A stretch of 64,000 bases of DNA from Eledone cirrhosa. Lineage: Eukaryota. Below the pieces are notes generated by a model. It made no database searches. It saw nothing but the letters and a program-made list of their open reading frames with translations, and was not told the DNA's origin. Positions 24,001 to 56,333 of the stretch are shown here, in pieces; positions within the stretch are counted from its first letter, which is position 1, and each line of letters begins with the position of its first letter. The translations under genes were made by a program, and so were the position numbers. The stretch is taken from NCBI GenBank assembly GCA_964016885.1, contig OZ024740.1, positions 421,414,001 to 421,478,000 of the forward strand, written 5' to 3'.

Positions 24001-26434
24001 TCTCACCTGTCACAATACTACATATCTCACCTGTCACAACACTATATATCTCACTGGTCCCAATACTACATATCTCACCTGTCACAATATTACATATCTC
24101 ACCTGTCACAATATTACATATCTCACCTGTCACAATACTACATATCTCACCTGTTACAATACTACAGATCTCACCTGTCACAATACTATATATCTCACCT
24201 GTTACAATACTGCATATATCACCTGTCACAATACTACATATCTCACTTGTCACAATACTATATATCTCACCTGTCACAATACTATATATCTCACCTGTCA
24301 CAATATTATATATCTCACCTGTCACAATACTATATATCTCACCTGTCACAATACTATATATATCACCTGTCACAATACTATATATCTCACCTGTCACAAT
24401 ACTATATATCTCACCTGTCACAATATTATATATCTCACATGTCACAATACTATATATCTCACCTGTCACAATACTACATATCTCACCTGTCACAATACTA
24501 CATATTTCACCTGTCACAATACTATATATCTCACCTGTCACAATATTATATATCTCACCTGTCACTATACTACATATCTCACCGGTCACAATACTACATA
24601 TCTCATCTCTCACAATACTACATATCTCACCTGTCACAATATTACATATCTCACCTGTCACAATACTACATATCTCACCTCTCACAATATTACATATCTC
24701 ACCTGTCACAATACTATATATCTCACCTGTCACAATATTACATATCTCACCTGTCACAATACTATATATCTCTCCTGTCACAATATTACATAGCTCACCT
24801 GTCACAATACTACATATCTCACCTGTCACAATACTATATATCTCACCTGTCACAATACTATATATCTCACCTGTCACAATACTATATATCTCACCTGTTA
24901 CAATACTACATATCTCACCTGTCACAATACTATATATCTCATCTGTCACAACATTATATATCTCACCTGTCACAATACTACATATCTCACCTGTCACAAT
25001 ACTATATATCTCACCTGTCACTATACTACATATCTCACCTGTCACAAAACTACATATCCCACCTGTCACAATACTACATATCTCACCTGTCACAATACTA
25101 CATATCTCACCTCTCACAATATTACATATCACCTGTCACAATACTATATATCTCACCTGTCACAATATTACATATCTCACCTGTCACAATACTATATATC
25201 TCACCTGTCACAATATTACATAGCTCACCTGTCACAATACTATATATCTCACCTGTCACAATACTATATATCTCACCTGTCACAATACTATATATCTCAC
25301 CTGTTACAATACTATATATCTCACCTGTCACAATATTATATATCTCACCTGTCACAATACTATATATCTCACTTGTCACAATACTATATATCTCACCTGT
25401 CACAATACTACATATCTCACCTGTTACAATACTATATATCTCACCTGTCACAATACTATATATTTCACCTGTTACAATACTACATATCTCACCTGTCACA
25501 ATACTACATATCTCACCTGTCACAATACTATATATCTCACCTGTCACAATACTACATATTTCACCTTTCACAATACTATATATCTCACCTGTCACAATAT
25601 TATATATCTCACCTGTCACAATACTATATATCTCACCTGTCGCAATACTATATATCTCACCTGTCACAATACTATATATCTCACCTGTCACAATACTATA
25701 TATCTCACCTGTCACAATACTACATATCTCACCTGTCACAATATTACATATCTCACCTGTTACAATACTATATATCTCACCTGTCACAATATTACATATA
25801 TCACCTGTCACAATATTACATATCTCACCTGTTACAATACTATTTATCTCACCTGTCACAATACTATATATCTCACCTGTCACAATACTACATATCTCAC
25901 CTGTCACAATACTACATATCTCACCTGTCACAATATTATATATCTCACCTGTCACAATATTACATATCTCACCTGTCACAATACTATATATCTCACCTGT
26001 CACAATATTATATATCTCACCTGTCACAATACTACATATCTCACCTGTCACAATACTATATATCTCACCGGTCCCAATACTACATATCTCACCTGTCACA
26101 ATATTACATATCTCACCTGTCACAATATTACATATCTCACCTGTCACAATACTATATATCTCACCTGTCACAATACTATATATCTCACCTGTCACAATAC
26201 TACATATCTCACCTGTCACAATATTACATCTCACCTGTTACAATACTACATATCTCACCTGTCACAATACTATATATCTCACCTGTCACAATATTATATA
26301 TCTCACCTGTCACAATACTATATATCTCACCTGTCACAATACTATATATCTCACCTGTCACAATATTACATATCTCACCTGTCAGAATACTATATATCTC
26401 ACCTGTTACAATACTATATATCTCACCTGTCACA
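1..26434. repeat. 24-bp satellite (TCTCACCTGTCACAATAYTAYATA)n, about 1,100 copies in the window, intronic, continues beyond the left edge
   Basis: Direct reading; 8-aa periodic ORFs (ISPVTILH / IVTGEICS); 26.4 kb divided by 24. Confidence 0.99.
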
Positions 26435-26461
26435 CAAAAAGGTCTAACAATTATCACTCAC

Positions 26462-26528
26462 CTTGTAAGGTATTCTGGGAATACACATAAACTGATATCT
26501 GGGTATCAGAAAACGTAATAAATATTCC
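26462..26528 (-). CDS. WDR19: WDR19 exon H (67 bp): GIFITFSDTQISVYVYSQNTLQ(G)
   Basis: Acceptor ttatccag|GGA, donor AAG|gtgagt. Resembles human [23 protein letters not shown]. Confidence 0.88.
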
Positions 26529-26665
26529 CTGGATAATAAAAAATATAAAGAAAATATATTAATTAATTCATTAATAAAATATATTTAATTATCATTAACA
26601 TTGTCATGTGTTACTAATAACATAGGGGACATCTTATATAACTGGTATCAATGAATAAACTAATA

Positions 26666-27100
26666 GTTTCTGATTTAGGCACAGTGCCTATACTTTTTGG
26701 GGAAGGGATAGTTGATTAAATCAACCCCAGTGCATTACTGGTAGTATATTTTATGAACCAGCATAAGGATAAAAGACTAAGCTAACCTCAGCGGGATTTG
26801 AACTCAGAATGTAAAGGGACGTAACTGTATGCCACAAATCATGTTGTCCAACACTCCACCAATACTGCCATTCCACTACCCTATCGTTTCTGATTTAGGC
26901 ACAAGGACAACAATTTTGGTGGAGGGGAAGGTTGATTAAATTCACTCCAGTGCATTACTGGTACTCTATTATATCGACCTCCGTAAGGATGAAAAGTAAA
27001 GCTAACCTCTGCAGGATTTCAACTCAGAACGTAAATGGATATAACGGTATTCCACACAGTATGTTGTCCGACACTCTACCGATTCTGCCAACCACCGCTG
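26666..27100 (-). mobile_element. Two tandem ~220-bp SINE copies (26666-26880 and 26886-27100)
   Basis: Both start GTTTCTGATTTAGGCACA and share CCAGTGCATTACTGGTA and GATTTSAACTCAGAA (B-box-like GAGTTCAAATCC on the minus strand). Confidence 0.75.
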
Positions 27101-27264
27101 CAACAGACTGCTGATAATATCAATGTGAAATTATATATCTATACATTCGTCAACATTTTTACATCCACCATTCTAAGTTAGTTGGAGTTGGGTATGACTA
27201 CTTTTGGGAGCAGTTTTTTCTAGCCAGATACCCTTTCTGATGCCAACCCATTCTTTATTATTAA

Positions 27265-27402
27265 GTAGATTGGTAGTATCGGTAGAGGGTCGGACGCCAT
27301 GCTTTGGCACAAAGAGTTACGTCCCTTTACGATCTGAGTTCAAATCCCGCCGAGGTTAACTTTGCTTTTCATCCTTACAGGGTCGAGAAAATAAAGTACC
27401 AG
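27265..27402 (+). mobile_element. SINE 5' part, same family as 26666-27100, opposite orientation
   Basis: CTGAGTTCAAATCCCGCCGAGGTTAACTTTGCTTTTCATCCTTA is the near reverse complement of 26765-26808. Confidence 0.75.
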
Positions 27403-27437
27403 AAAGTAGAAACAATTATTAAGTATGCTATGTATCT

Positions 27438-27716: not shown

Positions 27717-27984
27717 AGATACCAATGGTAAGAAACTCTCAGGAGAGCTAGACAGCAGAAGGTCTTCAGAAAAGAAATTCTGAGGAGAGCTGGACAGCAG
27801 AATGTCTTCAGAGAAGAAACCACCCTCAAGCAAGTCTTTCAGCCCTTAACGCCTGACATTCATTGAAATACTATGGTTAATATAATCCCTGAATGTAATT
27901 AGTATGTCACAGTGTCTGTCAAAGTTGGTCCCTTGAATTAAATACAGTTCATCCAATGGACTTCCACACAGTCTCCTACATAGA

Positions 27985-28190: not shown

Positions 28191-28207
28191 TGAAACACAC
28201 ATAAAAT

Positions 28208-28410: not shown

Positions 28411-28514
28411 GAGTTCTCACTCGGTAAGTGAATGGGATCTGGGATCTTGTTGATTCAGATCTTTATAATACTAACACAGATTTTAACGCAACACACATAT
28501 GTATAAATTCTTAC

Positions 28515-28595
28515 CTTATTTTGTGGGTCTGTTTCCCACAAAACTCCATGGACATTGGCATTTAACTTTGGTATATCAACAACTTGGTCATTTGT
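28515..28595 (-). CDS. WDR19: WDR19 exon G (81 bp): TNDQVVDIPKLNANVHGVLWETDPQNK
   Basis: Acceptor ttttcctag|ACA, donor AAG|gtaaga. GVLWE motif. Confidence 0.9.
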
Positions 28596-28981
28596 CTAGG
28601 AAAACAGAGGACAGTTAGAAAGGGACTGACTATAGGACAGCTGTTATTTCACTGGACAACTGTTATTACCAACTGGACAAACATACAATGTAAGACATGT
28701 TAGCGTGTGTTGAACAATACATATAATTCAGTTATTATTTAAACTGTAGATATCTCACCTTTCTAATGGATATGTTGCTCTGATATTTTTTTAAGATCTT
28801 GGATTTTATTTATTTAATCAATTTCAACGTCCGTATTGAGCTAGTAAGCTATGACAGAATAGGAGAGGTATCTAATACCCCTTACAATTAAGAAACAAAA
28901 ACAATACAGAGAGAGTACAAGAGTAATATTTTGGCTGAGATGACACCTCACACTTGTTATGTCTTCAGAAGCTGATGTTAA

Positions 28982-29019
<38 letters not shown>
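28982..29019. repeat. (CA)n microsatellite
   Basis: Direct reading. Confidence 0.95.
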
Positions 29020-29085: not shown

Positions 29086-29232
29086 CGGGTTATAAACAAA
29101 TCCGTCAAATTTGTCGTCAATAAAAATGAGATTTCCTATAGAGTGTGGATAGACCTTGAGAAGGCCACAGTTGTGTTTATATTCATTAACAAACTTCCAA
29201 TCTTCCAAATAAAAATACTGCAACATTCCAGA
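29086..29232 (-). CDS. WDR19: WDR19 exon F (147 bp): SGMLQYFYLEDWKFVNEYKHNCGLLKVYPHSIGNLIFIDDKFDGFVYNP
   Basis: Acceptor aacag|TCT (an in-frame alternative ttgcag|TAT lies 15 nt downstream), donor CCG|gtgagt. YFY.EDW.FVN and FID.K.DGFVY.P motifs. Confidence 0.9.
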
Positions 29233-29301: not shown

Positions 29302-29532
29302 ATTGCTAATACTATTTATCGGTCGCAACTCCAGGTAGAAGGAGCAACGTGAAATAAAATGTCTTGCTCAAGGACATAACGCAACGCCTGGTCTGGGAAT
29401 CGAACTCACAACCACAATCGTGGGGTTGTGAGTTCGATTCCCAGACCGGGCGATGCATTATGTTCTTGAGCAAGACATTTTATTTCACATTGCTCCTACC
29501 TGGAGTTGCGACCGATAGATAGTATTAGCAAT
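29302..29532. repeat. Long inverted repeat: ~110-bp arms, ~10-nt loop, head-to-head SINE fragments
   Basis: 29302-29413 is the reverse complement of 29424-29532 with about 6 substitutions and one 3-nt indel. Confidence 0.95.
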
Positions 29533-29619
29533 TGGAAAGACCAATGGAAACATTGTTTCCTTGGTCTGATTTCACAAAAGTCGATCGTTCCTTTTATACA
29601 CAGGCATAGTGTATCTAAG

Positions 29620-29905: not shown

Positions 29906-30351
29906 TAGGACTGCTTTATCAATTATGTCCTTCTCCTTCCTAATGTGAGAGAGTTGAGGTAGATTTGGATGTTATTTCTAGCAGGTCGAGTGACCAACTA
30001 TAGGCTCCCACATTGACTTACTCTTGGCCCCGAGGTTAGTTCTGATTAAAGATGTTCTAAGCTTTTTCCTCCAGACACAATGTATCTAGGATTCCATTAA
30101 TTAGAGTTTTTCCTTTTTTAAGATGACATCTTATTTTTACTGTTAGTATAGTAAGAAAGTGACCATGATCCTTTTCAGGATCTCTGTAATGGGTGGAAGG
30201 GAGGGTGGAAGATATTCTTAAACCAAAAATCTGGTTCAAATAGTTGCAGCAGAATTGTCTCCACTAAAAACATCCAAGAGCAAGGTAGTCGTATTAAACC
30301 AGGTGAAAAATTAAGCCTGTGATTTGGTTGCTATTTCTAGTAGGTCAAGTA

Positions 30352-30546
30352 ACAATATAAAGGCTGCCGCACTGGTCTTCTGTAGAAATTGCTTATCACC
30401 AAGTCAACCCTAATTTATTCTTAACATCCTGTACCACATGCAACCACATTAGAAGCAGCACTATGACTGCATATATTAAGGAGGAGATAGTTATGGCATA
30501 GATGGCAACTGGAAGTTACTCTGAGGCAACCTGTGTATATATGTAT
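30352..30546 (+). repeat. ~190-bp segment duplicated at 33446-33640
   Basis: Near-identical CACTGGTCTTCTGTAGAAATTGCTTATCACCAAG...GAAGTTACTCTGAGGCA in both places. Confidence 0.92.
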
Positions 30547-30959: not shown

Positions 30960-31365
30960 TGCAAGGGCATCACAGCTGCAAATGTGAAAAGGGGTCAAAT
31001 TGCAGCAGAAAGAGGAACCAAAAACATTACATCACAGACATACCAACAACCCAGGATTCTGCATATATCTGCACCAAGTGCAACAGGGACTCTCACTTAT
31101 GCATCAGTCTGCACAGTCACATCAGATGATGCCAAAGACTGGTCATAACTGCAGGCACATTAAACACAGCAGATGATGCTAAAGACTGGTCATAACTGCA
31201 GACACATTAAACACAGCAGTCTGCACAGTCACAGCAGATGATGTCAAAGACTGGTCATAACTGCAGGCACAGTAAACACAGCAGTCTGCACAGTCACAGC
31301 AGATGATGTCAAAGACTGGTCATAACTGCAGGCACAGTAAACACAGTCTCCTAAGACTGAGCTGC
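30960..31365 (+). mobile_element. LINE ORF2 C-terminal zinc-finger remnant with an internal ~65-bp tandem repeat (about 4 copies, 31105-31348)
   Basis: YICTKCNRDSHLCISLHSHIR resembles the C..C.R.C.SRIGL.SH.R tail of RTE elements. Repeated CAGATGATGYCAAAGACTGGTCATAACTGCAGGCAC. Confidence 0.6.
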
Positions 31366-31973: not shown

Positions 31974-32096
31974 ACTGGTGCAGTATATTAAAAAATCTTC
32001 AGTCATTGCATGATGTACAATTTGACATTTGTTGCCTTCAAAAAGACGTGACTGTTTCTGTTTAAACTCATCGTTTTCACTGTTATTTGCATCCAA
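31974..32096 (-). CDS. WDR19: WDR19 exon E (123 bp): LDANNSENDEFKQKQSRLFEGNKCQIVHHAMTEDFLIYCTS
   Basis: Acceptor ttttctag|TTG, donor AGT|gtaagt. Resembles human RLFP...KCRILCHALTSDFLIYGTD. Confidence 0.9.
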
Positions 32097-32117
32097 CTAG
32101 AAAAACATGAAATAATA

Positions 32118-32596
32118 TCTAAATATTTCCACATCAGATGTTATATAATAAAATATTATATAAATATTTCCACATCAAATGTTATATAATGAAATGTTAC
32201 TTAATTATTTCTACATCAGATGTTATATCATGAAATATTATTTAATTATTTCCACATCAGATGTTATATAATGAAATGTTATCTAAATATTTCCACATCA
32301 GATGTTATATAATAAAATGTTAAATATTTCCACATTAGATGTTATATGATAAAATGTTATATATTTCCACATCAGATGTTATATAATGAAATGTTATATA
32401 TAATATTTCCACACCAGATGTTATATAATGAAATGCTATTTATAATATTTTCACACCAGATGTTATATAATGAAATGTTATATATAATATTTCCACACCA
32501 GATGTTATATAATGAAATGTTATATATATTTCCACACCAGATGTTGTATATTGAAATGTTATATATAATATTTCCACACCAGATGTTATATAATGT
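32118..32596. repeat. About 39-42-bp AT-rich minisatellite (ATATTTCCACAYCAGATGTTATATAATGAAATGTTATATATA), about 12 copies
   Basis: Direct reading; ends about 20 nt before the exon E acceptor. Confidence 0.93.
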
Positions 32597-32714: not shown

Positions 32715-32915
32715 TTTCAGCTGTGTTGAAGACATGATAACAGCTCTTGTGTTGATGATCTACATGTAAAATACACCCAGTACACTCTGTAAAGTGGCTG
32801 ATGATAGGAAGGACATCGAGCCATAGAAAACCTGCCAAACAAAGGCTTGAGAAGATTGTTCAGTTGTGTTAAAGACATGGCAATCGCCCTAGTGCTGGTG
32901 CCACAATAAAATGCC
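32715..32915 (+). mobile_element. Dispersed repeat, related copies at 34700-34970 (+) and 55105-55190 (-); probable source family of the 48-bp satellite
   Basis: Shared CACCCAGTACACTCTGTAAAGTGG..G.TGATAGGAAGG.CATC.AG...TAGAAA and TGGTGCCACAATAAAATGC motifs. Confidence 0.65.
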
Positions 32916-33147: not shown

Positions 33148-33276
33148 TGGGTGTGTGTGAGTGCATGTGTGTTTATGTGAATGTGTGCATGTGGGTGTGA
33201 GTATGCATGTGCATGTGAGCATGCAAGTGTGTGGGAGCATGCATGTGTGTGTGTATGTGTATATATGTATATGTGT
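33148..33276. repeat. Degenerate (GT/GCAT)n microsatellite
   Basis: Direct reading; about 20 nt into the intron after the exon D donor. Confidence 0.85.
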
Positions 33277-33294
33277 AAAGTAATATATACTTAC

Positions 33295-33401
33295 AATATG
33301 TAGTTGAACTTTCTCTCCTATTTGTGCTGCAACATATTTAGAATTCAACTTCATTGACTGGACACTCCCGACATAGTCTACTTCTCGTAACTTCTTGGCA
33401 C
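33295..33401 (-). CDS. WDR19: WDR19 exon D (107 bp): (G)AKKLREVDYVGSVQSMKLNSKYVAAQIGEKVQLHI
   Basis: Acceptor attcag|GT, donor ATT|gtaagt. KVQLH motif. Phase 1 to phase 0. Confidence 0.92.
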
Positions 33402-33699: not shown

Positions 33700-34703
33700 C
33701 AGTGGAGGTGGGTAGCTAGAATAAGGATATGGTGGAAGAAGTTTAGGGAACTACTACCACTGCTAGCAACAAAAGTTTTCTCCTTGCGAATGAAATGTCA
33801 GCTGTATGTTTGTGTGCGAAGTGTCATGCTGCATGGTAGTGAGACATGGGCAGTGAATGCAGAGGACATGTGGTGCTACATGGTAGTGAGACATGGGCAG
33901 TGAATGCAGAGGATATGTGGTGCTACATGGTAGTGAGACATGGGAAGTGAATGCAGAGAACATGTGGTGCTACATGGTAGTGAGGCATTGGCAGTGAATG
34001 CAGAGGACATGTGGTGCTACATGGTAGTGAGACATGAGCAGTGAATGCAGATGACATGGGGTGCTACATGGTAGTGAGACATGGCAGTGAATGCAGAGGA
34101 CATGTGGTGCTACATGGTAGTGAGACATGGCAGTGAATGCAGAGGACATGTGGTGCTACATGGTAGTGATACATGGGCAGTGAATGCAGAGAACATGTGC
34201 TGCTACATGGGCAGTGAACGCAGAGGACATGTGGTGCTACATGGCAGTGAGACATGGGCAGTGAATGCAGAGGACATGTGGTGCTACATGGTAGTGAAAC
34301 ATGGGCAGTGAATGCAGAGAACATGTGGAGGCTGGAGAGAAATAAAGCAAGCATGATTTGATGGATGTGCAATATTAATATACGAGAATGACAAAGTATG
34401 GATGAACTGATTAAGAAACTGGGTATAAGAGGAATCAGATGTAGTGTGCAGGAGAGGTGACTGTGTTGGTAATGACATGTGATGTGCATGGATGGTGATT
34501 GCTGGGTGAAGAAGTGCCAAATAATCCCAGTGGAGGAAGACCAAGGAAGACTTGGATGGAAGGAGTAAGAACTGATCTCAGATCACTGAAGCTCATGGAG
34601 AAGATGACAAAAGAATGTGACAAGTAGAGAGATGTTGTACTGAGAAGGACCTGTCCAGCCCATGCAAACGTAGAACAATGGAAGTAAAATGATGATGATG
34701 ATG
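33700..34703 (+). mobile_element. Decayed RTE-clade LINE 3' fragment with (GAT)n tail
   Basis: Translates as FSLRMKCQLY..VRSVMLHGSETWAVNAENMWRLERNKASMI*WMCN...GGRPRKTW, typical of the post-RT region of RTE ORF2. Contains stops and frameshifts. Confidence 0.8.
33826..34328 (+). repeat. 47-bp tandem repeat (about 11 copies) inside an RTE-type LINE fragment
   Basis: Unit GCTACATGGTAGTGAGACATGGGCAGTGAATGCAGAGGACATGTGGT, encoding LHGSETWAVNAEDMW. Confidence 0.93.
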
Positions 34704-35344
34704 TGGGATGGTTGGTAATAGGAAGAACATCCAACTATAGAAAACATACCAAACAAAATGGACTCTTCAGCTGTGCTGTAGACATGACAACCTCCTAAGT
34801 ATTGAAGATCTACACAATAAATGATGACTCACACTGTTGGGTGGTTGGTGATAGGAAGGGCATCTGGCCTTGGAGGACCAGTTAAACAAAGGTTTAGGAA
34901 AACTCTTCAGCTGTGCTGTAGACATGACAACTTCACTAGTGTTGGTGCCACAATAAAATGCACTTGGTAGAGCATGGGATAATATGTTGGGCTCTCAGCC
35001 CACCTGGAGGGCAGAGGCTCCACTCAAGTACTGACTGATCAGTGACAACATATTCAACCCTTACTTACAAAGTAAACAGACACCGACATCGACGATGGGG
35101 AACAACATGATTTACCTAGTTCGCTGGACATCTCACTGTTTGATCTTCTCAAGAATGTGGCATATCTTTGGTCTATAAGTGACCAGTTCAACTCTATGGG
35201 CAGAAAGTATCCTTATGTGTCCACAACACATGGAGCAAAAAACTCCAACCCTCTTCCCCAACATTCATTGACCAAGAGGGCAAGAAAACCTCCAACACTG
35301 TTGCCGCTTCCTGCCTCCCATTCCATGACCTCACACTGCCTTGT

Positions 35345-35588
35345 TATTTACAGCAAAGCCCTCTAACCCATGATATCACTGCCACTCTTACTTCCAGCAA
35401 GGCCCTCGAACCCATATCACTGCCACCCCTACTTCCGGCAAAGCCCTCTGACACCATGATCTCAGTGCCCTTATACTTCCAACAAGGCCTTCTGACTTAT
35501 GATGTCACTGACACCCCCCCCCCCCCTACTTCCAGCAAGGCCCTCTGACCAATGATGTCTTTGACCCTTATACTTCTGGCAAGGCTCC
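35345..35588. repeat. Degenerate ~44-bp tandem repeat (5-6 copies) with a poly-C run
   Basis: Recurrent TACTTCCAGCAAGGCCCTCTGAC..ATGAT.TCACTG at roughly 41-53-bp spacing. Confidence 0.8.
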
Positions 35589-35662
35589 AGCCCCACATTA
35601 ACAACAACAACAGATCTACCAGAATAAACATTATACTCACTTCAATATTTTTAATAACTTAC

Positions 35663-35777
35663 CTTTTTCATCGAGATAGTAAAACCAAGCTATGTTGTTC
35701 ATACCAACAGCAAGATGTGTTGGGCCTAAAGCAATAAATGACGGTTCTATAGCAATTGAAATGACCAGAGGGGATTC
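35663..35777 (-). CDS. WDR19: WDR19 exon C (115 bp): ESPLVISIAIEPSFIALGPTHLAVGMNNIAWFYYLDEK(G)
   Basis: Acceptor atttcag|GAA, donor G|gtaagt. HLAVGMNN.AWFY motif. Phase 0 to phase 1. Confidence 0.93.
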
Positions 35778-35890
35778 CTGAAATAGTTGAAGATAAACAA
35801 TAAGATAGTTATATATATATATATGGATAATTGGAAATGAAATAAGGGTGGAGGATTGGTAGTATCAGTAGAGCAATGGACAAACGTATA

Positions 35891-41800: not shown

Positions 41801-44800
41801 GACACCAACATGACCACTTTACAGTGTGTACTGGGTGCTTTTTATTGTGAAACCAACATAACCACTTTACAGTGTGTACTAGGTGCTTTTTGTTGTGAAA
41901 CCAACATGACCACTTTACAGTGTGTACTGGGTGCTTTTTGTTGTGACACCAACATGACCATTTTACAGTGCGTACTGGGTGCTTTTTGTTGTGACACCAA
42001 CATGACCACTTTACAGTGTGTACTGGGTGCTTTTTGTTGTGAAACAAACATGACCACTTTACAGTGTGTACTGGGTGCTTTTTGTTGACACCAACATGAC
42101 CACTTTACAGTGTGTACTGGGTGCTTTTTGTTGTGACACCAACATGAACATTTTACAGTGTGTACTGGGTGCTTTTTGTTGTGACACCAACATGACCCCT
42201 TTACAGTGTGTACTGGGTGCTTTTTGTTGTGACACCAACATGACTACTTTACAGTGTGTACTGGGTGCTTTTTGTTGTGAAACCAACATGAAAACTTTAC
42301 AGTGTGTACTGGGTGCTTTTTGTTGTGAAACCAACATGACCACTTTACAGTGTGTACTGGGTGCTTTTTGTTGTGACACCAACATGACCACTTTACAGTG
42401 TGTACTGGGTGCTTTTTGTTGTGACACCAACATGACCACTTTACAGTGTGTACTGGGTGCTTTTTGTTGTGAAACCAACATGACCACTTTACAGTGTGTA
42501 CTGGGTGCTTTTTGTTGTGACACCAACATGACTACTTTACAGTGTGTACTGGGTGCTTTTGTTGTGATACCAACATGACTAGTTTACAGTGTGTACTGGG
42601 TGCTTTTTGTTGTGACACCAACATGACCACTTTACAGTGTGTGCTTGGTGCTTTTTGTTGTGAAACCAACATGACCACTTTACAGTGTGTACTGGGTGCT
42701 TTTTGTTGTGACACCAACATGACCACTTTACAGTGTGTACAGGGTGCTTTTTGTTGTGACACCAACATGACCACTTTACAGTGTGTACTGGGTGCTTTTT
42801 GTTGTGAAACCAACATGACCACTTTACAGTGTGTACTGGGTGTTTTTTGTTGTGACACCAACATGACTACTTTACAGTGTGTACTGGGTGCTTTTTGTTG
42901 TGACACCAACATGACTAGTTTACAGTGTGTACTGGGTGCTTTTTGTTGTGACACCAACATGACTACTTTACAGTGTGTACTGGGTGCTTTTTGTTGTGAA
43001 ACCAATATGACCACTTTACAGTGTGTACTGGGTGCTTTTGGTTGTGACATCAACATGACCACTTTACAGTGTGTACTGGGTACTTTTTGTTGTGACACCA
43101 ACATGAGCACTTTACAGTGTGTACTGGCTGCTTTTTGTTGTGACACCAACATGACCACTTTACAGCGTGTACTGGGTGCTTTTTGTTGTGAAACCAACAT
43201 GACCACTTTACAGTGTGTACTGGGTGCTTTTTGTTGTGAAACCAACATGACCACTTTACAGTGTGTACTGGGTGCTTTTTGTTGTGAAACCAACATGACC
43301 ACTTTATAGTGTGTACTGGGTGCTTTTTGTTGTGACACCAACATGACAACTTTACAGTGTGTACTGGGTGCTTGTTGTTGTGACACCAACATGACCACTT
43401 TACAGTGTGTACTGGGTGCTTTTTGTTGTGACACCAACATGACCACTTTACAGTGCGTACTGGGTGCTTTTTGTTGTGACACCAACATGACTAGTTTACA
43501 GTGTGTACTGGGTGCTTTTTGTTGTGACACCAACATGAGCACTTTACAGTGTGTACTGGGTGCTTTTTGTTGTGACACCAACATGACCACTTTACAGTGT
43601 GTACTGGGCGCTTTTTGTTGTGACACCAACATGACCACTTTACAGTGTGTACTGGGTGCTTTTTGTTGTGAAACCAACATGACCACTTTACAGTGTGTAC
43701 TGGGTGCTTTTTGTTGTGAAACCAACATGACCACTTTACAGTGTGTACTGGGTGCTTTTTGTTGTGACACCAACATGACCACTTTACAGTGTGTACTGGG
43801 TGCTTTTTGTTGTGACACCAACATGACTACTTTACAGTGTGTACTGGGTGCTTTTTGTTGTGAAACCAACATGACCACTTTACAGTGTGTACTGGGTGCT
43901 TTTTGTTGCGACACCAACATGACCACTTTACAGTGTGTACTGGGTACTTTTTGTTGTGACACCAACATGAGCACTTTACAGTGTGTACTGGGTGCTTTTT
44001 GTTGTGACACCAACATGACCACTTTACAGTGTGTGCTGGGTGCTTTTTGTTGTGAAACCAACATGACCACTTTACAGTGTGTACTGGGTGCTTTTTGTTG
44101 TGACACCAACATGACCGCTTTACAGTGTGTACTGGGAGGCTTTTTGTTGACACCAACATGACCACTTTACAGTGTGTACTGGGTGCTTTTTGTTGTGACA
44201 CCAACATGAACATTTTACAGTGTGTACTGGGTGCTTTTTGTTGTGACACCAACATGACCACTTTACAGTGTGTACTGGGTGCTTTTTGTTGTGAAACCAA
44301 CATAACCACTTTACAGTGTGTACTGGGTGCTTTTTGTTGTGAAACCAACATGACCACTTTACAGTGTGTACTGGGTGCTTTTTGTTGTGACACCAACATG
44401 ACCATTTTACAGTGCGTACTGGGTGCTTTTTGTTGTGACACCAACATGACCACTTTACAGTGTGTACTGGGTGCTTTTTGTTGTGAAACAAACATGACCA
44501 CTTTACAGTGTGTACTGGGTGCTTTTTGTTGACACCAACATGACCACTTTACAGTGTGTACTGGGTGCTTTTTGTTGTGACACCAACATGAACATTTTAC
44601 AGTGTGTACTGGCTGCTTTTTGTTGTGACACCAACATGACCCCTTTACAGTGTGTACTGGGTGCTTTTTGTTGTGAAACCAACATAACCACTTTACAGTG
44701 TGTACTGGGTGCTTTTTGTTGTGAAACCAACATGACCACTTTACAGTGTGTACTGGGTGCTTTTTGTTGTGACACCAACATGACCATTTTACAGTGCGTA

Positions 44801-47800
44801 CTGGGTGCTTTTTGTTGTGACACCAACATGACCACTTTACAGTGTGTACTGGGTGCTTTTTGTTGTGAAACAAACATGACCACTTTACAGTGTGTACTGG
44901 GTGCTTTTTGTTGACACCATGACCACTTTACAGTGTGTACTGGGTGCTTTTTGTTGTGACACCAACATGAACATTTTACAGTGTGTACTGGCTGCTTTTT
45001 GTTGTGACACGAACATGACCCATTTACAGTGTGTACTGGGTGCTTTTTGTTGTGACACCAACATGACTACTTTACAGTGTGTACTGGGTGCTTTTTGTTG
45101 TGAAACCAACATGACAACTTTACAGTGTGTACTGGGTGCTTTTTGTTGTGAAACCAACATGACCACTTTACAGTGTGTACTGGGTGCTTTTTGTTGTGAC
45201 ACCAACATGACCACTTTACAGTGTGTACTGGGTGCTTTTTGTTGTGACACCAACATGACCACTTTACAGTGTGTACTGGGTGCTTTTTGTTGTGAAACCA
45301 ACATGACCACTTTACAGTGTGTACTGGGTGCTTTTTGTTGTGACACCAACATGACTACTTTACAGTGTGTACTGGGTGCTTTTTGTTGTGACACCAACAT
45401 GACTAGTTTACAGTGTGTACTGGGTGCTTTTTGTTGTGACACCAACATGACCACATTACAGTGTGTGCTGGGTGCTTTTTGTTGTGAAACCAACATGACC
45501 ACTTTACAGTGTGTACCGGGTGCTTTTTGTTGTGACACCAACATGACCACTTTACAGTGTGTACAGGGTGCTTTTTGTTGTGACACCAACATGACCACTT
45601 TACAGTGTGTACTGGGTGCTTTTTGTTGTGAAACCAACATGACCACTTTACAGTGTGTACTGGGTGCTTTTTGTTGTGACACCAACATGACTACTTTACA
45701 GTGTGTACTGGGTGCTTTTTGTTGTGACACCAACATGACTAGTTTACAGTGTGTACTGGGTGCTTTTTGTTGTGACACCAACATGACCACTTTACAGTGT
45801 GTACTGGGTCATTTTTGTTGTGAAACCAATATGACCACTTTACAGTGTGTACTGGGTGCTTTTTGTTGTGACACCAACATGACCACTTTACAGTGTGTAC
45901 TGGGTACTTTTTGTTGTGACACCAACATGAGCACTTTACAGTGTGTACTGGGTGCTTTTTGTTGTGACACCAACATGACCACTTTACAGTGTGTACTGGG
46001 TGCTTTTTGTTGTGAAACCAACATGACCACTTTACAGTGTGTACTGGGTGCTTTTTGTTGTGAAACCAACATGACCACTTTACAGTGTGTACTGGGTGCT
46101 TTTTGTTGTGAAACCAACATGACCACTTTATAGTGTGTACTGGGTGCTTTTTGTTGTGACACCAACATGACAACTTTACAGTGTGTACTGGGTGCTTGTT
46201 GTTGTGACACCAACATGACCACTTTACAGTGTGTACTGGGTGCTTTTTGTTGTGACACCAACATGACCACTTTACAGTGCGTACTGGGTGCTTTTTGTTG
46301 TGACACCAACATGACCACTTTACAGTGTGTACTGGGTGCTTTTTGTTGTGACACCAACATGACTACTTTACAGTGTGTACTGGGTGCTTTTTGTTGTGAA
46401 ACCAACATGACCACTTTACAGTGTGTACTGGGTGCTTTTTGTTGTGAAACCAACATGACCACTTTACAGTGTGTACTGGGTGCTTTTTGTTGTGACACCA
46501 ACATGACCACTTTACAGTGTGTACTGGGTGCTTTTTGTTGTGACACCAACATGACCACTTTACAGTGTGTACTGGGTGCTTTTTGTTCTGAAACCAACAT
46601 GACCACTTTACAGTGTGTACTGGGTGCTTTTTGTTGTGACACCACATGACTAGTTTACAGTGTGTACTGGGTGCTTTTTGTTGTGACACCAACATGACCA
46701 CTTTACAGTGTGTACTGGGTGCTTTTTGTTGTGACACCAACATGACCACTTTACAGTGCGTACTGGGTGCTTTTTGTTGTAACACCAACATGACCACTTT
46801 ACAGTGTGTACTGGGTGCTTTTTGTTGTGAAACCAACATGACCACTTTACAGTGTGTACTGGGTGCTTTTTTTTGACACCAACATGACCACTTTACAGTG
46901 TGTACTGGGTGCTTTTTGTTGTGACACCAACATGAACATTTTACAGTGTATACTGGGTGCTTTTTGTTGTGACACCAACATGACCACTTTACAGTGTGTA
47001 CTGGGTGCTTTTTGTTGTGACACCAACATGACTACTTTACAGTGTGTACTGGGTGCTTTTTGTTGTGAAACCAACATGACAACTTTACAGTGTGTACTGG
47101 GTGCTTTTTGTTGTGAAACCAACATGACCACTTTACAGTGTGTACTGGGCGCTTTTTGTTGTGACACCAACATGACCACTTTACAGTGTGTACTGGGTGC
47201 TTTTTGTTGTGAAACCAACATGACCACTTTACAGTGTGTACTGGGTGCTTTTTGTTGTGAAACCAACATGACCACTTTACAGTGTGTACTGGGTGCTTTT
47301 TGTTGTGACACCAACATGACCACTTTACAGTGTGTACTGGGTGCTTTTTGTTGTGACACCAACATGACTACTTTACAGTGTGTACTGGGTGCTTTTTGTT
47401 GTGAAACCAACATGACCACTTTACAGTGTGTACTGGGTGCTTTTTGTTGCGACACCATCATGACCACTTTACAGTGTGTACTGGGTACTTTTTGTTGTGA
47501 CACCAACATGAGCACTTTACAGTGTGTACTGGGTGCTTTTTGTTGTGACACCAACATGACCACTTTACAGTGTGTGCTGGGTGCTTTTTGTTGTGAAACC
47601 AACATGACCACTTTACAGTGTGTACTGGGTGCTTTTTGTTGTGACACCAACATGACCGCTTTACAGTGTGTACTGGGAGGCTTTTTGTTGACACCAACAT
47701 GACCACTTTACAGTGTGTACTGGGTGCTTTTTGTTGTGACACCAACATGAACATTTTACAGTGTGTACTGGGTGCTTTTTGTTGTGACACCAACATGACC

Positions 47801-50800
47801 ACTTTACAGTGTGTACTGGGTGCTTTTTGTTGTGAAACCAACATAACCACTTTACAGTGTGTACTGGGTGCTTTTTGTTGTGAAACCAACATGACCACTT
47901 TACAGTGTGTACTGGGTGCTTTTTGTTGTGAAACAAACATGACCACTTTACAGTGTGTACTGGGTGCTTTTTGTTGACACCATGACCACTTTACAGTGTG
48001 TACTGGGTGCTTTTTGTTGTGACACCAACATGAACATTTTACAGTGTGTACTGGCTGCTTTTTGTTGTGACACGAACATGACCCATTTACAGTGTGTACT
48101 GGGTGCTTTTTGTTGTGACACCAACATGACTACTTTACAGTGTGTACTGGGTGCTTTTTGTTGTGAAACCAACATGACAACTTTACAGTGTGTACTGGGT
48201 GCTTTTTGTTGTGAAACCAACATGACCACTTTACAGTGTGTACTGGGTGCTTTTTGTTGTGACACCAACATGACCACTTTACAGTGTGTACTGGGTGCTT
48301 TTTGTTGTGACACCAACATGACCACTTTACAGTGTGTACTGGGTGCTTTTTGTTGTGAAACCAACATGACCACTTTACAGTGTGTACTGGGTGCTTTTTG
48401 TTGTGACACCAACATGACTACTTTACAGTGTGTACTGGGTGCTTTTTGTTGTGACACCAACATGACTAGTTTACAGTGTGTACTGGGTGCTTTTTGTTGT
48501 GACACCAACATGACCACATTACAGTGTGTGCTGGGTGCTTTTTGTTGTGAAACCAACATGACCACTTTACAGTGTGTACCGGGTGCTTTTTGTTGTGACA
48601 CCAACATGACCACTTTACAGTGTGCTTTTTGTTGTGACACCAACATGACCACTTTACAGTGTGTACTGGGTGCTTTTTGTTGTGAAACCAACATGACCAC
48701 TTTACAGTGTGTACTGGGTGCTTTTTGTTGTGACACCAACATGACTACTTTACAGTGTGTACTGGGTGCTTTTTGTTGTGACACCAACATGACTAGTTTA
48801 CAGTGTGTACTGGGTGCTTTTTGTTGTGACACCAACATGACCACTTTACAGTGTGTACTGGGTGCTTTTTGTTGTGAAACCAATATGACCACTTTACAGT
48901 GTGTACTGGGTGCTTTTTGTTGTGACACCAACATGACCACTTTACAGTGTGTACTGGGTACTTTTTGTTGTGAAACCAACATGAGCACTTTACAGTGTGT
49001 ACTGGGTGCTTTTTGTTGTGACACCAACATGACCACTTTACAGTGTGTACTGGGTGCTTTTTGTTGTGAAACCAACATGACCACTTTACAGTGTGTACTG
49101 GGTGCTTTTTGTTGTGAAACCAACATGACCACTTTACAGTGTGTACTGGGTGCTTTTTGTTGTGAAACCAACATGACCACTTTATAGTGTGTACTGGGTG
49201 CTTTTTGTTGTGACACCAACATGACAACTTTACAGTGTGTACTGGGTGCTTGTTGTTGTGACACCAACATGACCACTTTACAGTGTGTACTGGGTGCTTT
49301 TTGTTGTGACACCAACATGACCACTTTACAGTGCGTACTGGGTGCTTTTTGTTGTGACACCAACATGACCACTTTACAGTGTGTACTGGGTGCTTTTTGT
49401 TGTGACACCAACATGACTACTTTACAGTGTGTACTGGGTGCTTTTTGTTGTGAAACCAACATGACCACTTTACAGTGTGTACTGGGTGCTTTTTGTTGTG
49501 AAACCAACATGACCACTTTACAGTGTGTACTGGGTGCTTTTTGTTGTGACACCAACATGACCACTTTACAGTGTGTACTGGGTGCTTTTTGTTCTGAAAC
49601 CAACATGACCACTTTACAGTGTGTACTGGGTGCTTTTTGTTGTGACACCAACATGACCACTTTACAGTGTGTACTGGGTGCTTTTTGTTGTGAAACCAAT
49701 ATGACCACTTTACAGTGTGTACTGGGTGCTTTTTGTTGTGACACCAACATGACCACTTTACAGTGTGTACTGGGTACTTTTTGTTGTGAAACCAACATGA
49801 GCACTTTACAGTGTGTACTGGGTGCTTTTTGTTGTGACACCAACATGACCACTTTACAGTGTGTACTGGGTGCTTTTTGTTGTGAAACCAACATGACCAC
49901 TTTACAGTGTGTACTGGGTGCTTTTTGTTGTGAAACCAACATGACCACTTTACAGTGTGTACTGGGTGCTTTTTGTTGTGAAACCAACATGACCACTTTA
50001 TAGTGTGTACTGGGTGCTTTTTGTTGTGACACCAACATGACAACTTTACAGTGTGTACTGGGTGCTTGTTGTTGTGACACCAACATGACCACTTTACAGT
50101 GTGTACTGGGTGCTTTTTGTTGTGACACCAACATGACCACTTTACAGTGCGTACTGGGTGCTTTTTGTTGTGACACCAACATGACCACTTTACAGTGTGT
50201 ACTGGGTGCTTTTTGTTGTGACACCAACATGACTACTTTACAGTGTGTACTGGGTGCTTTTTGTTGTGAAACCAACATGACCACTTTACAGTGTGTACTG
50301 GGTGCTTTTTGTTGTGAAACCAACATGACCACTTTACAGTGTGTACTGGGTGCTTTTTGTTGTGACACCAACATGACCACTTTACAGTGTGTACTGGGTG
50401 CTTTTTGTTCTGAAACCAACATGACCACTTTACAGTGTGTACTGGGTGCTTTTTGTTGTGACACCACATGACTAGTTTACAGTGTGTACTGGGTGCTTTT
50501 TGTTGTGACACCAACATGACCACTTTACAGTGTGTACTGGGTGCTTTTTGTTGTGACACCAACATGACCACTTTACAGTGCGTACTGGGTGCTTTTTGTT
50601 GTAACACCAACATGACCACTTTACAGTGTGTACTGGGTGCTTTTTGTTGTGAAACCAACATGACCACTTTACAGTGTGTACTGGGTGCTTTTTGTTGACA
50701 CCAACATGACCACTTTACAGTGTGTACTGGGTGCTTTTTGTTGTGACACCAACATGAACATTTTACAGTGTATACTGGGTGCTTTTTGTTGTGACACCAA

Positions 50801-52456
50801 CATGACCACTTTACAGTGTGTACTGGGTGCTTTTTGTTGTGACACCAACATGACTACTTTACAGTGTGTACTGGGTGCTTTTTGTTGTGAAACCAACATG
50901 ACAACTTTACAGTGTGTACTGGGTGCTTTTTGTTGTGAAACCAACATGACCACTTTACAGTGTGTACTGGGTGCTTTTTGTTGTGACACCAACATGACCA
51001 CTTTACAGTGTGTACTGGGTGCTTTTTGTTGTGAAACCAACATGACCACTTTACAGTGTGTACTGGGTGCTTTTTGTTGTGACACCAACATGACCACTTT
51101 ACAGTGTGTACTGGGTGCTTTTTGTTGTGAAACCAACATGACCACTTTACAGTGTGTACTGGGTGCTTTTTGTTGTGACACCAACATGACCACTTTACAG
51201 TGTGTGCTGGGTGCTTTTTGTTGTGAAACCAACATGACCACTTTACAGTGTGTACTGGGTGCTTTTTGTTGTGACACCAACATGACCACTTTACAGTGCG
51301 TACTGGGTGCTTTTTGTTGTAACACCAACATGACCACTTTACAGTGTGTACTGGGTGCTTTTTGTTGTGAAACAAACATGACCACTTTACAGTGTGTACT
51401 GGGTGCTTTTTGTTGACACCAACATGACCACTTTACAGTGTGTACTGGGTGCTTTTTGTTGTGACACCAACATGAACATTTTACAGTGTATACTGGGTGC
51501 TTTTTGTTGTGACACCAACATGACCACTTTACAGTGTGTACTGGGTGCTTTTTGTTGTGACACCAACATGACTACTTTACAGTGTGTACTGGGTGCTTTT
51601 TGTTGTGAAACCAACATGACAACTTTACAGTGTGTACTGGGTGCTTTTTGTTGTGAAACCAACATGACCACTTTACAGTGTGTACTGGGTGCTTTTTGTT
51701 GTGACACCAACATGACCACTTTACAGTGTGTACTGGGTGCTTTTTGTTGTGAAACCAACATGACCACTTTACAGTGTGTACTGGGTGCTTTTTGTTGTGA
51801 CACCAACATGACCACTTTACAGTGTGTACTGGGTGCTTTTTGTTGTGAAACCAACATGACCACTTTACAGTGTGTACTGGGTGCTTTTTGTTGTGACACC
51901 AACATGACCACTTTACAGTGTGTGCTGGGTGCTTTTTGTTGTGAAACCAACATGACCACTTTACAGTGTGTACTGGGTGCTTTTTGTTGTGACACTAACA
52001 TGACCACTTTACAGTGTGTACTGGGTGCTTTTTGTTGTGACACCAACATGACCACTTTACAGTGTGTACTGGGTGCTTTTTGTTGTGAAACCAACATGAC
52101 CCCTTTACAGTGTGTAATGGGTGCTTTTTGTTGTGACACCAACATGACCACTTTACAGTGTGTACTGGGTGCTTTTTGTTGTGAAACCAATACGACCACT
52201 TTACAGTGTGTACTGGGTGCTTTTTGTTGTGACACCAACATGACCACTTTACAGTGTGTACTGGGTAATTTTTGTTGTGACACCAACATGAGCACTTTAC
52301 AGTGTGTGCTGGGTGCTTTTTGTTGTGACACCAACATGACCACTTTACAGTGTGTGCTGGGTGCTTTTTGTTGTGAAACCAACATGACCACTTTACAGTG
52401 TGTACTGGGTGCTTTTTGTTGTGACACCAACATGACCACTTTACAGTGTGTACTGG
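35891..52456. repeat. 48-bp satellite (GTACTGGGTGCTTTTTGTTGTGACACCAACATGACCACTTTACAGTGT)n, about 345 copies, intronic
   Basis: Direct reading; 16-aa periodic ORFs (MTTLQCVLGAFCCDTN). Confidence 0.99.
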
Positions 52457-54179
52457 ACTGTCACCTCAACAGTAATAAACACTCACATTATTGACAATGT
52501 TCTGGCTGTCACCTCAACAGTAATAAACACTCACTTTATTGACAATGTCCTGGACTGTCACCTCAACAGTAGTAAACACTCACATTATTGACAATGTCCT
52601 GGACTGTCACCTCAACAGTAATAAACACTCACTTTATTGACAATGTCCTGGACTGTCACCTCAACAGTAGTAAACACTCACATTATTGACAATGTCCTGG
52701 ACTGTCACCTCAACAGTACTAAACACTCACTTTATTGACAATGTCCTGGACTGTCACCTCAACAGTAGTAAACACTCACATTATTGACAATGTCCTGGAC
52801 TGTCACCTCAACAGTAATAAACACTCACTATATTGACAATGTCCTGGACTGTCACCTCAACAGTAATAAACACTCACTATATTGACAATGTCCTGGACTG
52901 TCACCTCAACAGTAATAAACACTCACATTATTGACAATGTCCTGGACTGTCACCTCAACAGTAATAAACACTCACTTTATTGACAATGTCCTGGACTGTC
53001 ACCTCAACAGTAATAAACTCACATTATTGACAATGTCCTGGACTGTCACCTCAACAGTAAGAAACACTCACTTTATTGACAATGTCCTGGACTGTCACCT
53101 CAACAGTAATAAACACTCACTTTATTGACAATTTCCTGGACTGTCACCTCAACAGTAATAAACACACATTATTGACAATGTCCTGGACTGTCACCTCAAC
53201 AGTAATAAACACTCACTATATTGACAATGTCCTGGACTGTCACCTCAACAGTAATAAACACTCACATTATTGACAATGTCCTGGACTGTCACCTCAACAG
53301 TAATAAACACTCACTTTATTGACAATGTCCTGGACTGTCACCTCAACAGTAATAAACACTCACATTATTGACAATGTCCTGGACTGTCACCTCAACAGTA
53401 ATAAACACTCACATTATTGACAATGTCCTGGACTGTCACCTCAACAGTAATAAACACTCACTATATTGACAATGTCCTGGACTGTCACCTCAACAGTAAT
53501 AAACACTCACTATATTGACAATGTCCTGGACTGTCACCTCAACAGTAATAAACACTCACTATATTGACAATGTCCTGGACTGTCACCTCAACAGTAATAA
53601 ACACTCACTATATTGACAATGTCCTGGACTGTCACATCAACAGTAATAAACACTCACTATATTGATAATGTCCTGGACTGTCACCTCAACAGTAATAAAC
53701 ACTCACATTATTGACAATGTCCTGGACTGTCACCTCAACAGTAATAAACACTCACATTATTGACAATGTCCTGGACTGTCACCTCAACAGTAATAAACAC
53801 TCACTATATTGACAATGTCCTGGACTGTCACCTCAACAGTAATAAACACTCACTATATTGACAATGTCCTGGACTGTCACCTCAACAGTAATAAACACTC
53901 ACTATATTGACAATGTCCTGGACTGTCACCTCAACAGTAATAAACACTCACTATATTGACAATGTCCTGGACTGTCACATCAACAGTAATAAACACTCAC
54001 TATATTGATAATGTCCTGGACTGTCACCTCAACAGTAATAAACACTCACATTATTGACAATGTCCTGGACTGTCACCTCAACAGTAATAAACACTCACAT
54101 TATTGACAATATCTTGCACTGTCACCTCAACAGTAATAAACACTCACTTTATTGACAATGTCTTGGACTGTCACCTCAA
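52453..54179. repeat. 49-bp tandem array made from the exon B donor junction, about 35 units
   Basis: Unit CTGGACTGTCACCTCAACAGTAATAAACACTCAC(TTT/ATT/TAT)ATTGACAATGTC. The right-most copy is the coding end of exon B (54148-54179). Confidence 0.97.
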
Positions 54180-54388
54180 GCAATGATGTTAAGTTAGCAA
54201 TACGTGTTTGGTAAGTGACAGCTAACATGGGTAATTTGGTCAAGAAAACCTGCAGGTGACCATACGACGTTGAAATTGCCATCAATTGCCCATCTTCAGT
54301 CCACTGCATTTTGTCAATGGTACAATCTTCTTTGAGTTGACGTATAGTATAGATTTCTTGTGGGTCATTCATTTCATGAATACGAACA
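54148..54388 (-). CDS. WDR19: WDR19 exon B (241 bp): VRIHEMNDPQ...WTEDGQLMAISTSYGHLQVFLTKLP...LTSLLEVTVQDIVNK
   Basis: Acceptor tttcatcttcag|T, donor AAA|gtgagt. Contained in ORF 54127..54408. Strong WDR19 motifs. Confidence 0.93.
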
Positions 54389-55479
54389 CTGAAGATGAAA
54401 TAAAACAAAAATAAAACTTAATTAAGTAATATTACCCTTTTGTGTCTTAACTTGTTGCTAATTAAATCTCATATCGTTATACATTGAACATCTGAGCAGT
54501 TAATTTATTCAGTCATAATTAGATTACTCAACAACTAGTACACATTTATTTTTCTGAAAATGATGGTTAACAACTTAAGATGTTTTGGTATTATTCTGAC
54601 CTCATCAGCAAAATAGCCCCCATTGTATTTTCCTGAGGAAATTATTGTACATTGATTGGCATAGGTAAACAGAATTGTATATTGTCTCTGAGTTATTTAT
54701 TCTCTACAGAATTCTGATGAGGTCAGAATAAGACTGAAATGTATCCAGTCATTTGTATTTGCAGAATAAAATGACTTCAAAGATGCTTTATAATGTTTCC
54801 TGTATTAAATATATTAATATTAACTGAACCCTCATACTACTAGTTTGACCAACTGTAATTCTGCTAGCCACTATGGCAGAAGATAGTAGTTTTCTCTGAT
54901 ATCACACAATTGGAATCAAACCCCAAACCACATGAGTGTGAAGTAAACTTCTAAACCAGACACCCATGTCAGTGGCATCAGATACATCATCATCATCATC
55001 ACCGTTTTACGTCCATTCTTCCAAGCTAGCAGGAGTTAGACAGGTTGTCCTGTTGTGGGCAGTGTCCAGTCGGCTGACTTTGTCTTGCTCATACAGGAAC
55101 TGGTTCTGGCTTGATTTCTACAGCTTGATGCCCTTCCTAACACCAACCTCATTTACAGTGAGTGTTGGGTGCTTTTTTACCGTGGCACCTCCACATCCAC
55201 TTTGCAGCGTGAGGGGCGGGGGCATATTGTCAATATGCTTCAGTTTCGACTTGTTTGAATATACAATGAATATATTTTATTAATCTCTAAAGGATGAAAA
55301 GTTCATCTCAATGAGATTACAATAATTGATATTACTGTTGATTCCAGTTAATTACATAACTTTTCAAGACATTAAATCATTTAACATCGAATATATGTAA
55401 AATTGATTGGTAAATTCCATATAGAAATAAAGTCAATTTTAGTTAATTGGTTAAAATTTTTCTCATTTTGAATTTAGAA

Positions 55480-56208
55480 AATCTAGACTATATAATCTAG
55501 ATTATATAATCTCCAGACTATATAATACAGACTATATAATCTAGACTATATAATACAGACTATATAAGCCAGACAATATAATCTCCAGACTATATAATCT
55601 CCAGATTATATAATCTGGAGACTATATAATCTCCAGACTATATAATCTAGACTATATAATCTCCAGAGTATATAATCTAGACTATATAATCTCCAAACTA
55701 TATAATCTAGACTATATAATCTCCAGACTATATAATCTAGAGACTATATAATCTAGACTATATAATCTACAGACTATATAATCTCCAGACTATATAATCT
55801 ACAGACTGTATAATTTGCAGACTATGTAATCTCCAGACTATATAATCTAGACTATATAATCTTCAGACTATATAATCTCCAGATTATATAATCTCCAGAC
55901 TATATAATCTCCAGACTATATAATCTACAGACTATATAATCTACAGACTATATAATCTGGAGACTATATAATCTACAGACTATATAATCTCCAGACTATA
56001 TAATCTACAGACTATATAATCTCCAGACTATATAATCTACAGACTATATAATCTGGAGACTATATAATCTACAGACTATATAATCTCCAGACTATATAAT
56101 CTAGACTATATAATTTCCAGACTATATAATCTCCAGACTATATAATCTCCAGACTATATAATCTCCAGACTATAATCTACAGACTATATAATCTGGAGAC
56201 TATATAAT
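55480..56208. repeat. 14-16-bp minisatellite (CT[CC/AC/GG]AGACTATATAAT)n
   Basis: Direct reading; starts about 33 nt into the intron after the exon A donor. Confidence 0.96.
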
Positions 56209-56241
56209 CAAGAAATCTCAAAACTGAGATAATATTATTAC

Positions 56242-56333
56242 CTGTTGCCACCAGATGTCGCTACTTTGTTCAAATATGGAGACAATGCAATATTTGTCAG
56301 GCCTTCTTTGTGGTCTAATGTTGAAAATAGTTC
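56242..56333 (-). CDS. WDR19: WDR19 exon A (92 bp): ELFSTLDHKEGLTNIALSPYLNKVATSGGN(S)
   Basis: Acceptor atcag|GAA, donor AG|gtaata. Ends phase 2, matching the 1-nt start of the next exon. Resembles human [30 protein letters not shown]. Confidence 0.9.

Follow-up and report, generated by a model that had tools for sequence, protein, structure and literature searches.

Tandem arrays close to splice sites in an AT-rich octopod WDR19 locus

The WDR19 gene and its tandem arrays

The stretch of Eledone cirrhosa DNA analyzed here (64,000 nucleotides (nt); assembly GCA_964016885.1, contig OZ024740.1, positions 421,414,001 to 421,478,000 of the forward strand; hereafter the window) contains eight minus-strand exons of the octopod WDR19/IFT144 gene and 16 tandem arrays, half of which are located no more than 50 nt from a splice site. 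The exons, lettered A to H (Table 1), all have AG/GT borders and yield a spliced model that is free of stop codons. They encode consecutive residues that align to positions 280–606 of the Octopus bimaculoides protein P0001 with 59–85% identity and are thereby colinear with the known orthologue. Exon B shows 84% identity to the proteins of both O. bimaculoides and O. vulgaris. The WDR19 propeller models of Pfam (PF23389 and PF15911) are matched by all five exons that were scanned, one of them below the curated cut-off.

The arrays take up 53,802 of the 64,000 nt (84%) of a locus that is AT-rich, with a guanine–cytosine (GC) content of 28–45% per kilobase. Each of the seven closed introns harbors at least one array; the arrays are confined to single introns and leave the reading frame open. 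Tandem Repeats Finder (TRF) returned 52 rows that merge into 16 blocks. The 16 arrays counted in the following are these blocks minus a 220-nt dimer, with the block of the 48-mer and 49-mer split in two. The dimer (26666–27090) was excluded because it represents two neighboring copies of a dispersed element that are 79% alike. These adjoining copies span 26663–27100, and a third copy is found in reversed orientation at 27264–27405.

The preliminary description of this DNA had placed arrays repeatedly right at exon borders, and most of the distances that it listed are about right (27 nt for the 24-mer, an overlap for the 49-mer, 32 nt for the 16-mer, 10–23 nt for the 41/42-mer, 114 nt for the 48-mer, and 17 nt for the TG-rich tract), with the distance of the 44-mer depending on the settings (67 nt or 148 nt). 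The list was selective, however. Five arrays that it omitted lie 425–1180 nt away from a splice site, namely the 47-mer, the 47/65-mer, the 42-mer dimer, an ATA run (1180 nt from the nearest splice site), and the 31-mer. Additionally, several near-edge arrays were missing from it: the dimers of the 25-mer (22 nt), the 26-mer (7 nt), and the 19-mer (39 nt) and the (AC)n microsatellite (66 nt). Intron B-C consists of array over 18,256 of its 18,370 nt. As only 114 nt in it are array-free, the 48-mer is necessarily close to an exon, and both arrays of this intron are uninformative on position.

Table 1. Tandem arrays and WDR19 exons, with positions counted from the first letter of the window.
Feature	Position	Strand	Distance to splice site, location, or evidence
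24-mer array, at least 1104 copies, continues past window edge	1..26434		first unit 27 nt past donor H
25-mer dimer	26551..26598		22 nt upstream of acceptor H
42-mer dimer, mid-intron G-H	27730..27820		694 nt from donor G
19-mer dimer	28635..28680		39 nt upstream of acceptor G
(AC)n microsatellite	28982..29019		66 nt past donor F
47/65-mer array, mid-intron E-F	31118..31346		627 nt from donor E
41/42-mer array, 12 copies	32107..32595		10 nt upstream of acceptor E (23 nt with strict TRF)
TG-rich microsatellite tract (CA-rich on transcribed strand)	33151..33277		17 nt past donor D
47-mer array within reverse-transcriptase retrotransposon reading-frame remnant	33827..34328	+	mid-intron, 425 nt from splice site
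Degenerate 44-mer array	35344..35595		67 nt past donor C (relaxed TRF), 148 nt (default TRF)
Sole non-array part of intron B-C, 114 nt	35778..35891		acceptor region and about 40 nt of the end of the 220-nt dispersed element
48-mer array, 346 copies	35892..52452		114 nt from acceptor C; meets 49-mer at CTGG
49-mer array, 35 units	52453..54179	-	includes 32 nt of exon B, spans donor B
16-mer array, 47 copies	55485..56209		32 nt past donor A
26-mer dimer	56341..56399		7 nt upstream of acceptor A
31-mer array, at least 210 copies, continues past window edge	57515..64000		1181 nt from acceptor A (1122 array-free nt)
WDR19 exon A	56242..56333	-	AG/GT borders, protein match, Pfam
WDR19 exon B	54148..54388	-	protein match, Pfam, contig coverage
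WDR19 exon C	35663..35777	-	AG/GT borders, protein match, Pfam
WDR19 exon D	33295..33401	-	AG/GT borders, protein match, Pfam
WDR19 exon E	31974..32096	-	AG/GT borders, protein match
WDR19 exon F	29086..29232	-	AG/GT borders, protein match, Pfam
WDR19 exon G	28515..28595	-	AG/GT borders, protein match
WDR19 exon H	26462..26528	-	AG/GT borders, protein match

Origin of the repeat units

The 49-mer unit is composed of 32 nt of exon B and 17 nt of the adjoining intron, and its 35 units therefore provide 34 extra exon B donors. GTGAGT is kept in 34 of the 35 units, and the complete 9-mer of the real donor recurs in seven of the 34 extra donors. Contigs from four of nine listed sequence runs were aligned to positions 54082–55480; the listed material comprised contigs and reduced-representation short reads, and no run was recorded as RNA. 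Those of a related organism B (about 93% alike) and of an organism C contain the first unit only; their matches end at 54129 and 54134, beyond which they run on for 127 and 102 letters, respectively, that do not fit a second unit. The single unit in both organisms indicates that the array is lineage-specific and has grown from the native exon–intron junction.

A contig of 1023 nt from run X5, the kind of which is not on record, covers 54147–54391 with zero differences and has no depth in the adjoining intron. Its overhangs of 1 nt and 3 nt are those expected from joins to exon C, via the first donor, and to exon A. This one contig fits splicing at the first exon B donor; contigs, however, drop rare forms. 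The use of a donor further downstream in the 49-mer would lead to a stop six codons further on. An assembly artefact was considered as a source of the array and is unlikely, as the contig depth in run X1 amounts to 235–546 over the units compared to 7.6 for unique DNA; X1 may be the source sample, and the total array lengths given here are provisional. The exon-derived part ends with AAT (Asn, as in the aligned O. bimaculoides protein) in 14 of the 35 units, and the exonic unit itself has AAA (Lys). It can be speculated that an exchange between array and exon could change the end of exon B in the protein.

The 48-mer and the 47-mer originate from dispersed elements. Matches to the 48-mer unit occur in dispersed copies at 55152–55211, 32768–32797, and 34940–34963, and the summed contig depth of its parent element is in the millions, again compared to 7.6 for unique DNA. 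Contigs of organism B suggest a similar tandem restart of this element. A very high-copy dispersed repeat that includes the element is located at 54985–55270. The 47-mer lies inside the remnant of a retrotransposon open reading frame (33712–34550) that is continuous on both sides of the array. A homologue search matched this frame at 74% to a protein of O. bimaculoides that contains PF00078, whereas Pfam (five frames) and a protein atlas returned no identification. The local derivation suggested earlier, like uniqueness to the locus, applies to the 49-mer but not to the 48-mer, a high-copy dispersed repeat, while the 47-mer is a piece of a local retrotransposon copy. All other units were compared against this window alone.

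The 24-mer carries the donor-like motif CAG/GTGAGA on the transcribed strand in 844 units. The motif agrees with the donor consensus at seven of nine positions and thereby equals the real donor of exon H, which lies 35 nt upstream; so good a donor motif is present in 1.8% of random 24-mers. The 24-mer may have arisen long ago as an exon stutter that has since diverged, but a derivation from donor H found no support, as the alignment is not significant (shuffle p 0.19; top 3.8% of 6456 windows). When five other units were compared with their adjacent splice regions, only the 16-mer was similar (p 0.021, uncorrected). The 41/42-mer unit is a repeat of the sequence immediately upstream of acceptor E.

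Further duplications are present in the introns. A 43-nt direct repeat (33405–33447 and 33641–33683, 93% alike) begins 3 nt from acceptor D and flanks a 195-nt block; the arrangement is reminiscent of a duplication of acceptor-proximal sequence upon insertion. The 195-nt block is found at 33443–33636 in intron C-D and at 30350–30544 in intron E-F with 95% identity, and other dispersed copies show 72–82%; the pair represents either a young element or a local duplication. At 29302–29572, a dispersed element occurs twice in a head-to-head inverted arrangement that is centered at about 29417, with its near end about 70 nt from acceptor F.

Position of the arrays and its possible causes

The distances of the arrays to splice sites were compared with the expectation from array-free intron length in the closed introns except B-C, six in number and with 11 arrays in total. 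Five of these arrays are at most 50 nt away from a splice site, compared to 1.26 expected (p 0.003), and seven lie within 120 nt, where 3.0 are expected (p 0.006). The latter count places the edge of the 44-mer at 67 nt and would be lowered by one with the edge at 148 nt. Within 200 nt, the same seven arrays are compared to 5.0 expected (p 0.12). Fisher's combined p is 0.014. With all arrays pooled, eight of the 16 fall within the 50 nt next to a splice site, where 8.8% of the positions are (p <0.0001). The small dimers go beyond composition noise, as locally shuffled introns yield 0.09 TRF rows of score ≥50 per gene (300 shuffles). It had been proposed at the outset to judge the pattern by whether the distances equal random expectation once array-free intron length is accounted for. 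The excess survives this comparison in a position test that is post hoc, with the pattern and the test taken from the same data on one gene with 16 arrays. The edge excess is probably real in this gene and is largely explained by known forces.

The pattern could also arise from few arrays, short array-free introns, and an after-the-fact choice, with no real positional bias beyond this gene. This is unlikely in view of the counts for all arrays and the scarcity of TRF rows in shuffled introns. The doubt is nourished by the minisatellites of at least 200 nt in the closed introns outside B-C, two of five of which lie within 50 nt (p 0.061) and three of five within 120 nt (p 0.057), and likewise by the result at 200 nt, by the five arrays at least 425 nt from any splice site, and by the edge of the 44-mer that varies with the TRF settings.

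The array-free part of the introns is unevenly composed. Dispersed repeats amount to 3982 of its 8076 nt (about 49%), and their share rises from 7% in the 50 nt next to a splice site to 23% at 50–120 nt and about 60% beyond 250 nt. In parallel, the GC content climbs from 27% to 41%. When the dispersed repeats are masked, using a mask that stems mostly from self-similarity inside the window and is incomplete, Fisher's combined p becomes 0.041 for the 11 arrays, 0.068 for ten arrays without the 47-mer, and 0.092 for the four non-transposon minisatellites of at least 200 nt. A second null was simulated as intron growth, in which arrays are seeded in a short intron and blocks of 150–450 nt are subsequently inserted. 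This growth null reproduces the counts for starting introns of 150–300 nt (p 0.19–0.97; with 300 nt, p 0.19–0.30 for five of 11 arrays within 50 nt) and is borderline for starting introns of 500 nt (p 0.04–0.07). Taken together, these two simpler nulls, repeat masking and the growth of initially short introns, account for some or even all of the edge excess.

Intron B-C additionally displays a loss of sequence at the array edges. After a plain tandem expansion, the array should give way to the native intron sequence that originally came after the copied unit. The 49-mer instead finishes in a partial exon-derived unit that is fused to the 48-mer at a common CTGG (seven of eight letters alike). 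The other end of the 48-mer adjoins a terminal fragment of the 220-nt dispersed element; this fragment measures about 40 nt, and the remainder of the element is missing. The score of this truncated element is reached in none of 2000 shuffles for two of three copies and has a p of 0.0035 for the third. Based on tRNA-like boxes, we take the 40-nt end to be a putative 5′ head of a short interspersed nuclear element. At least one deletion, and probably two, stripped intron B-C of nearly everything outside the arrays except for the donor and the final 114 nt. The idea that arrays are stopped by selection at splice signals is supported in this one intron, where the 48-mer is bounded by truncation junctions on either side.

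The explanation preferred here, which appears moderately probable, is that the locus is an AT-rich counterpart of avian sequence stuttering, where the position of the arrays results from intron middles filled with transposons, from edge deletions, and from splice-site selection. The gene would be part of a domain prone to tandem duplication and amplification of short pieces from any intron sequence. The units show that native intron, an exon–intron junction, or transposon pieces serve as seeds. We infer that these are probably duplicated first, by slippage or through microhomology, and that unequal exchange then follows. Three reasons may account for the position of the resulting arrays. First, dispersed repeats fill the intron middles, which concentrates native sequence at the ends. 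Second, edge deletions of large arrays would remove dispensable flank and survive only when splice signals are spared, as observed in intron B-C and presumed for the other introns. Third, an array that spans a donor would be tolerated because the first donor is used, as indicated by one contig here and known for human F7. The arrays themselves are most likely non-functional.

Several observations weigh against this explanation. After masking, five of ten arrays remain within 50 nt compared to 2.0 expected (p 0.030), and the pooled count of eight of 16 retains a p of 0.002 over non-transposon positions. The growth null fails when the ancestral introns are set to 800 nt (p 0.017–0.019), and it requires seeds that are older than the transposons. 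No foreign insertion was found within any of the six arrays checked, just two diverged stretches of 18–19 nt, which means that the bulk of the arrays is younger than the transposons or that arrays purge them. The 49-mer array arose after the divergence from organism B. Regarding edge deletions, the 16-, 41-, and 44-mers retain 570–1440 nt of far-side flank, and no flank was lost around the 47-mer. In favor of the growth null, the intron middles are still growing on the same time scale, as the mid-intron block 54985–55270 is missing from a contig of organism B that joins across it.

The preliminary description had offered, as one of two possibilities, a locus-wide process, for example one linked to transcription or splicing. 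In this scheme, a coupled lesion (polymerase pausing, R-loops, or breaks) would seed arrays at splice sites through slippage or rolling-circle repair, which we regard as quite improbable. The excess within 50 nt that is left over after masking would agree with such seeding, as would the three duplications that copy splice-proximal sequence (the 49-mer, the 41-mer, and the 43-nt direct repeat beside acceptor D) and the largest array, the 24-mer, which begins 27 nt from a donor and bears a donor-like motif that is rare in random 24-mers. Nothing directly indicates a lesion or a circle, however, and the 24-mer has no significant alignment to donor H. Arrays are found at donors and acceptors alike and also mid-intron within the retrotransposon, and the simpler nulls fit. 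A locus-wide tendency to form arrays is evident and remains of the original proposal, while its splice-linked part lacks direct support. Whether arrays are seeded by splicing itself is beyond what a single gene can show. That the arrays are kept near splice sites to regulate WDR19 splicing, by decoy donors, CA-rich protein-binding tracts, or tunable nonsense-mediated decay, is highly improbable, because the extra exon B donors, the stop behind each downstream donor, and the 844 motifs of the 24-mer that would suit this role are set against a 49-mer array that is missing at this site in organisms B and C, a single spliced contig that uses the first donor, and unrelated units, some of which are transposon pieces.

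Comparison with known systems

The counterpart invoked in the preferred explanation, sequence stuttering of introns and exons on avian dot chromosomes, was described in 2026 and tied to these GC-rich chromosomes without a mechanism (Hron et al. 2026, PMC12954441). The avian regions are GC-rich and are described as devoid of interspersed repeats, an association that is not among the three main features named by the authors. Their exon-edge copies contain a median of 36 exon nt in 1–44 copies, with spans of up to 23.5 kb. The sections of that paper considered here contain no test of an edge bias of purely intronic arrays.

The WDR19 locus resembles avian stuttering in that each intron contains at least one motif of tens of bases that has expanded locally, the blocks stay within single introns with intact exons (here in seven of seven closed introns with an open frame), some units copy an exon edge together with the splice site (here 32 exon nt in 35 units), and orthologous introns differ between close species. 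Unlike the avian case, it belongs to an invertebrate and is AT-rich, with about 49% dispersed repeats in the array-free intron in place of a GC-rich, repeat-free context. Its arrays are also regular (74–96% match), and two of them stem from dispersed elements. By analogy, the locus would work like stuttering, with two of the three main features present; the third is within-species variation in intron length.

An AT-rich, transposon-rich octopod locus with this anatomy would suggest that stuttering depends neither on GC content nor on G-quadruplexes, and it would give a second lineage in which models of replication slippage and recombination can be compared. As a natural experiment, the 34 extra donors and 844 donor-like motifs lend themselves to testing first-donor selection in an invertebrate. 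The evidence so far comes from one gene, and a published precedent exists for each ingredient. A more far-reaching and at present doubtful scenario assumes octopod domains of AT-rich stuttering that are independent of the GC-rich avian case, in which splice-site seeding would be followed by edge deletions that ratchet arrays toward the exons until introns are approximately arrays plus splice signals. If true, this would represent a general splice-anchored route of intron turnover. A literature search with incomplete journal coverage found neither stuttering nor edge-biased minisatellites reported for cephalopods; the part considered here of a study on O. vulgaris transposons (PMC13282606) does not address the subject, and that of a stick-insect preprint (10.64898/2026.09.22.753450) contains no splice-site analysis.

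Minisatellites that span a donor are known from the 37-bp variable number tandem repeat in intron 7 of human F7 and from 6-16, CBS, LMNB2, and PDGF (Borensztajn et al. 2006, PMC1557585), and the most upstream donor is used in the F7 type. As in these cases, the first unit of the 49-mer spans the exon–intron boundary and the array reiterates the donor. The difference from F7 lies in the 35 units of 49 nt and in their fusion to a second array of 16.6 kb.

In 31 plants and green algae, tandem repeats follow a U-shaped distribution along the relative position in introns genome-wide, with motifs of 1–3 nt being the commonest (PMC3887541). The WDR19 introns likewise contain more tandem repeats toward their ends, with units of 16–49 nt and kilobase arrays in one animal gene. 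Transposons are under-represented at the intron ends of human and mouse (PMC3088655). The same scarcity of dispersed repeats within 50–100 nt of exons is found here (7% compared to about 60%), the mammalian study being concerned with transposons and not with tandem arrays and serving in this analysis as a null.

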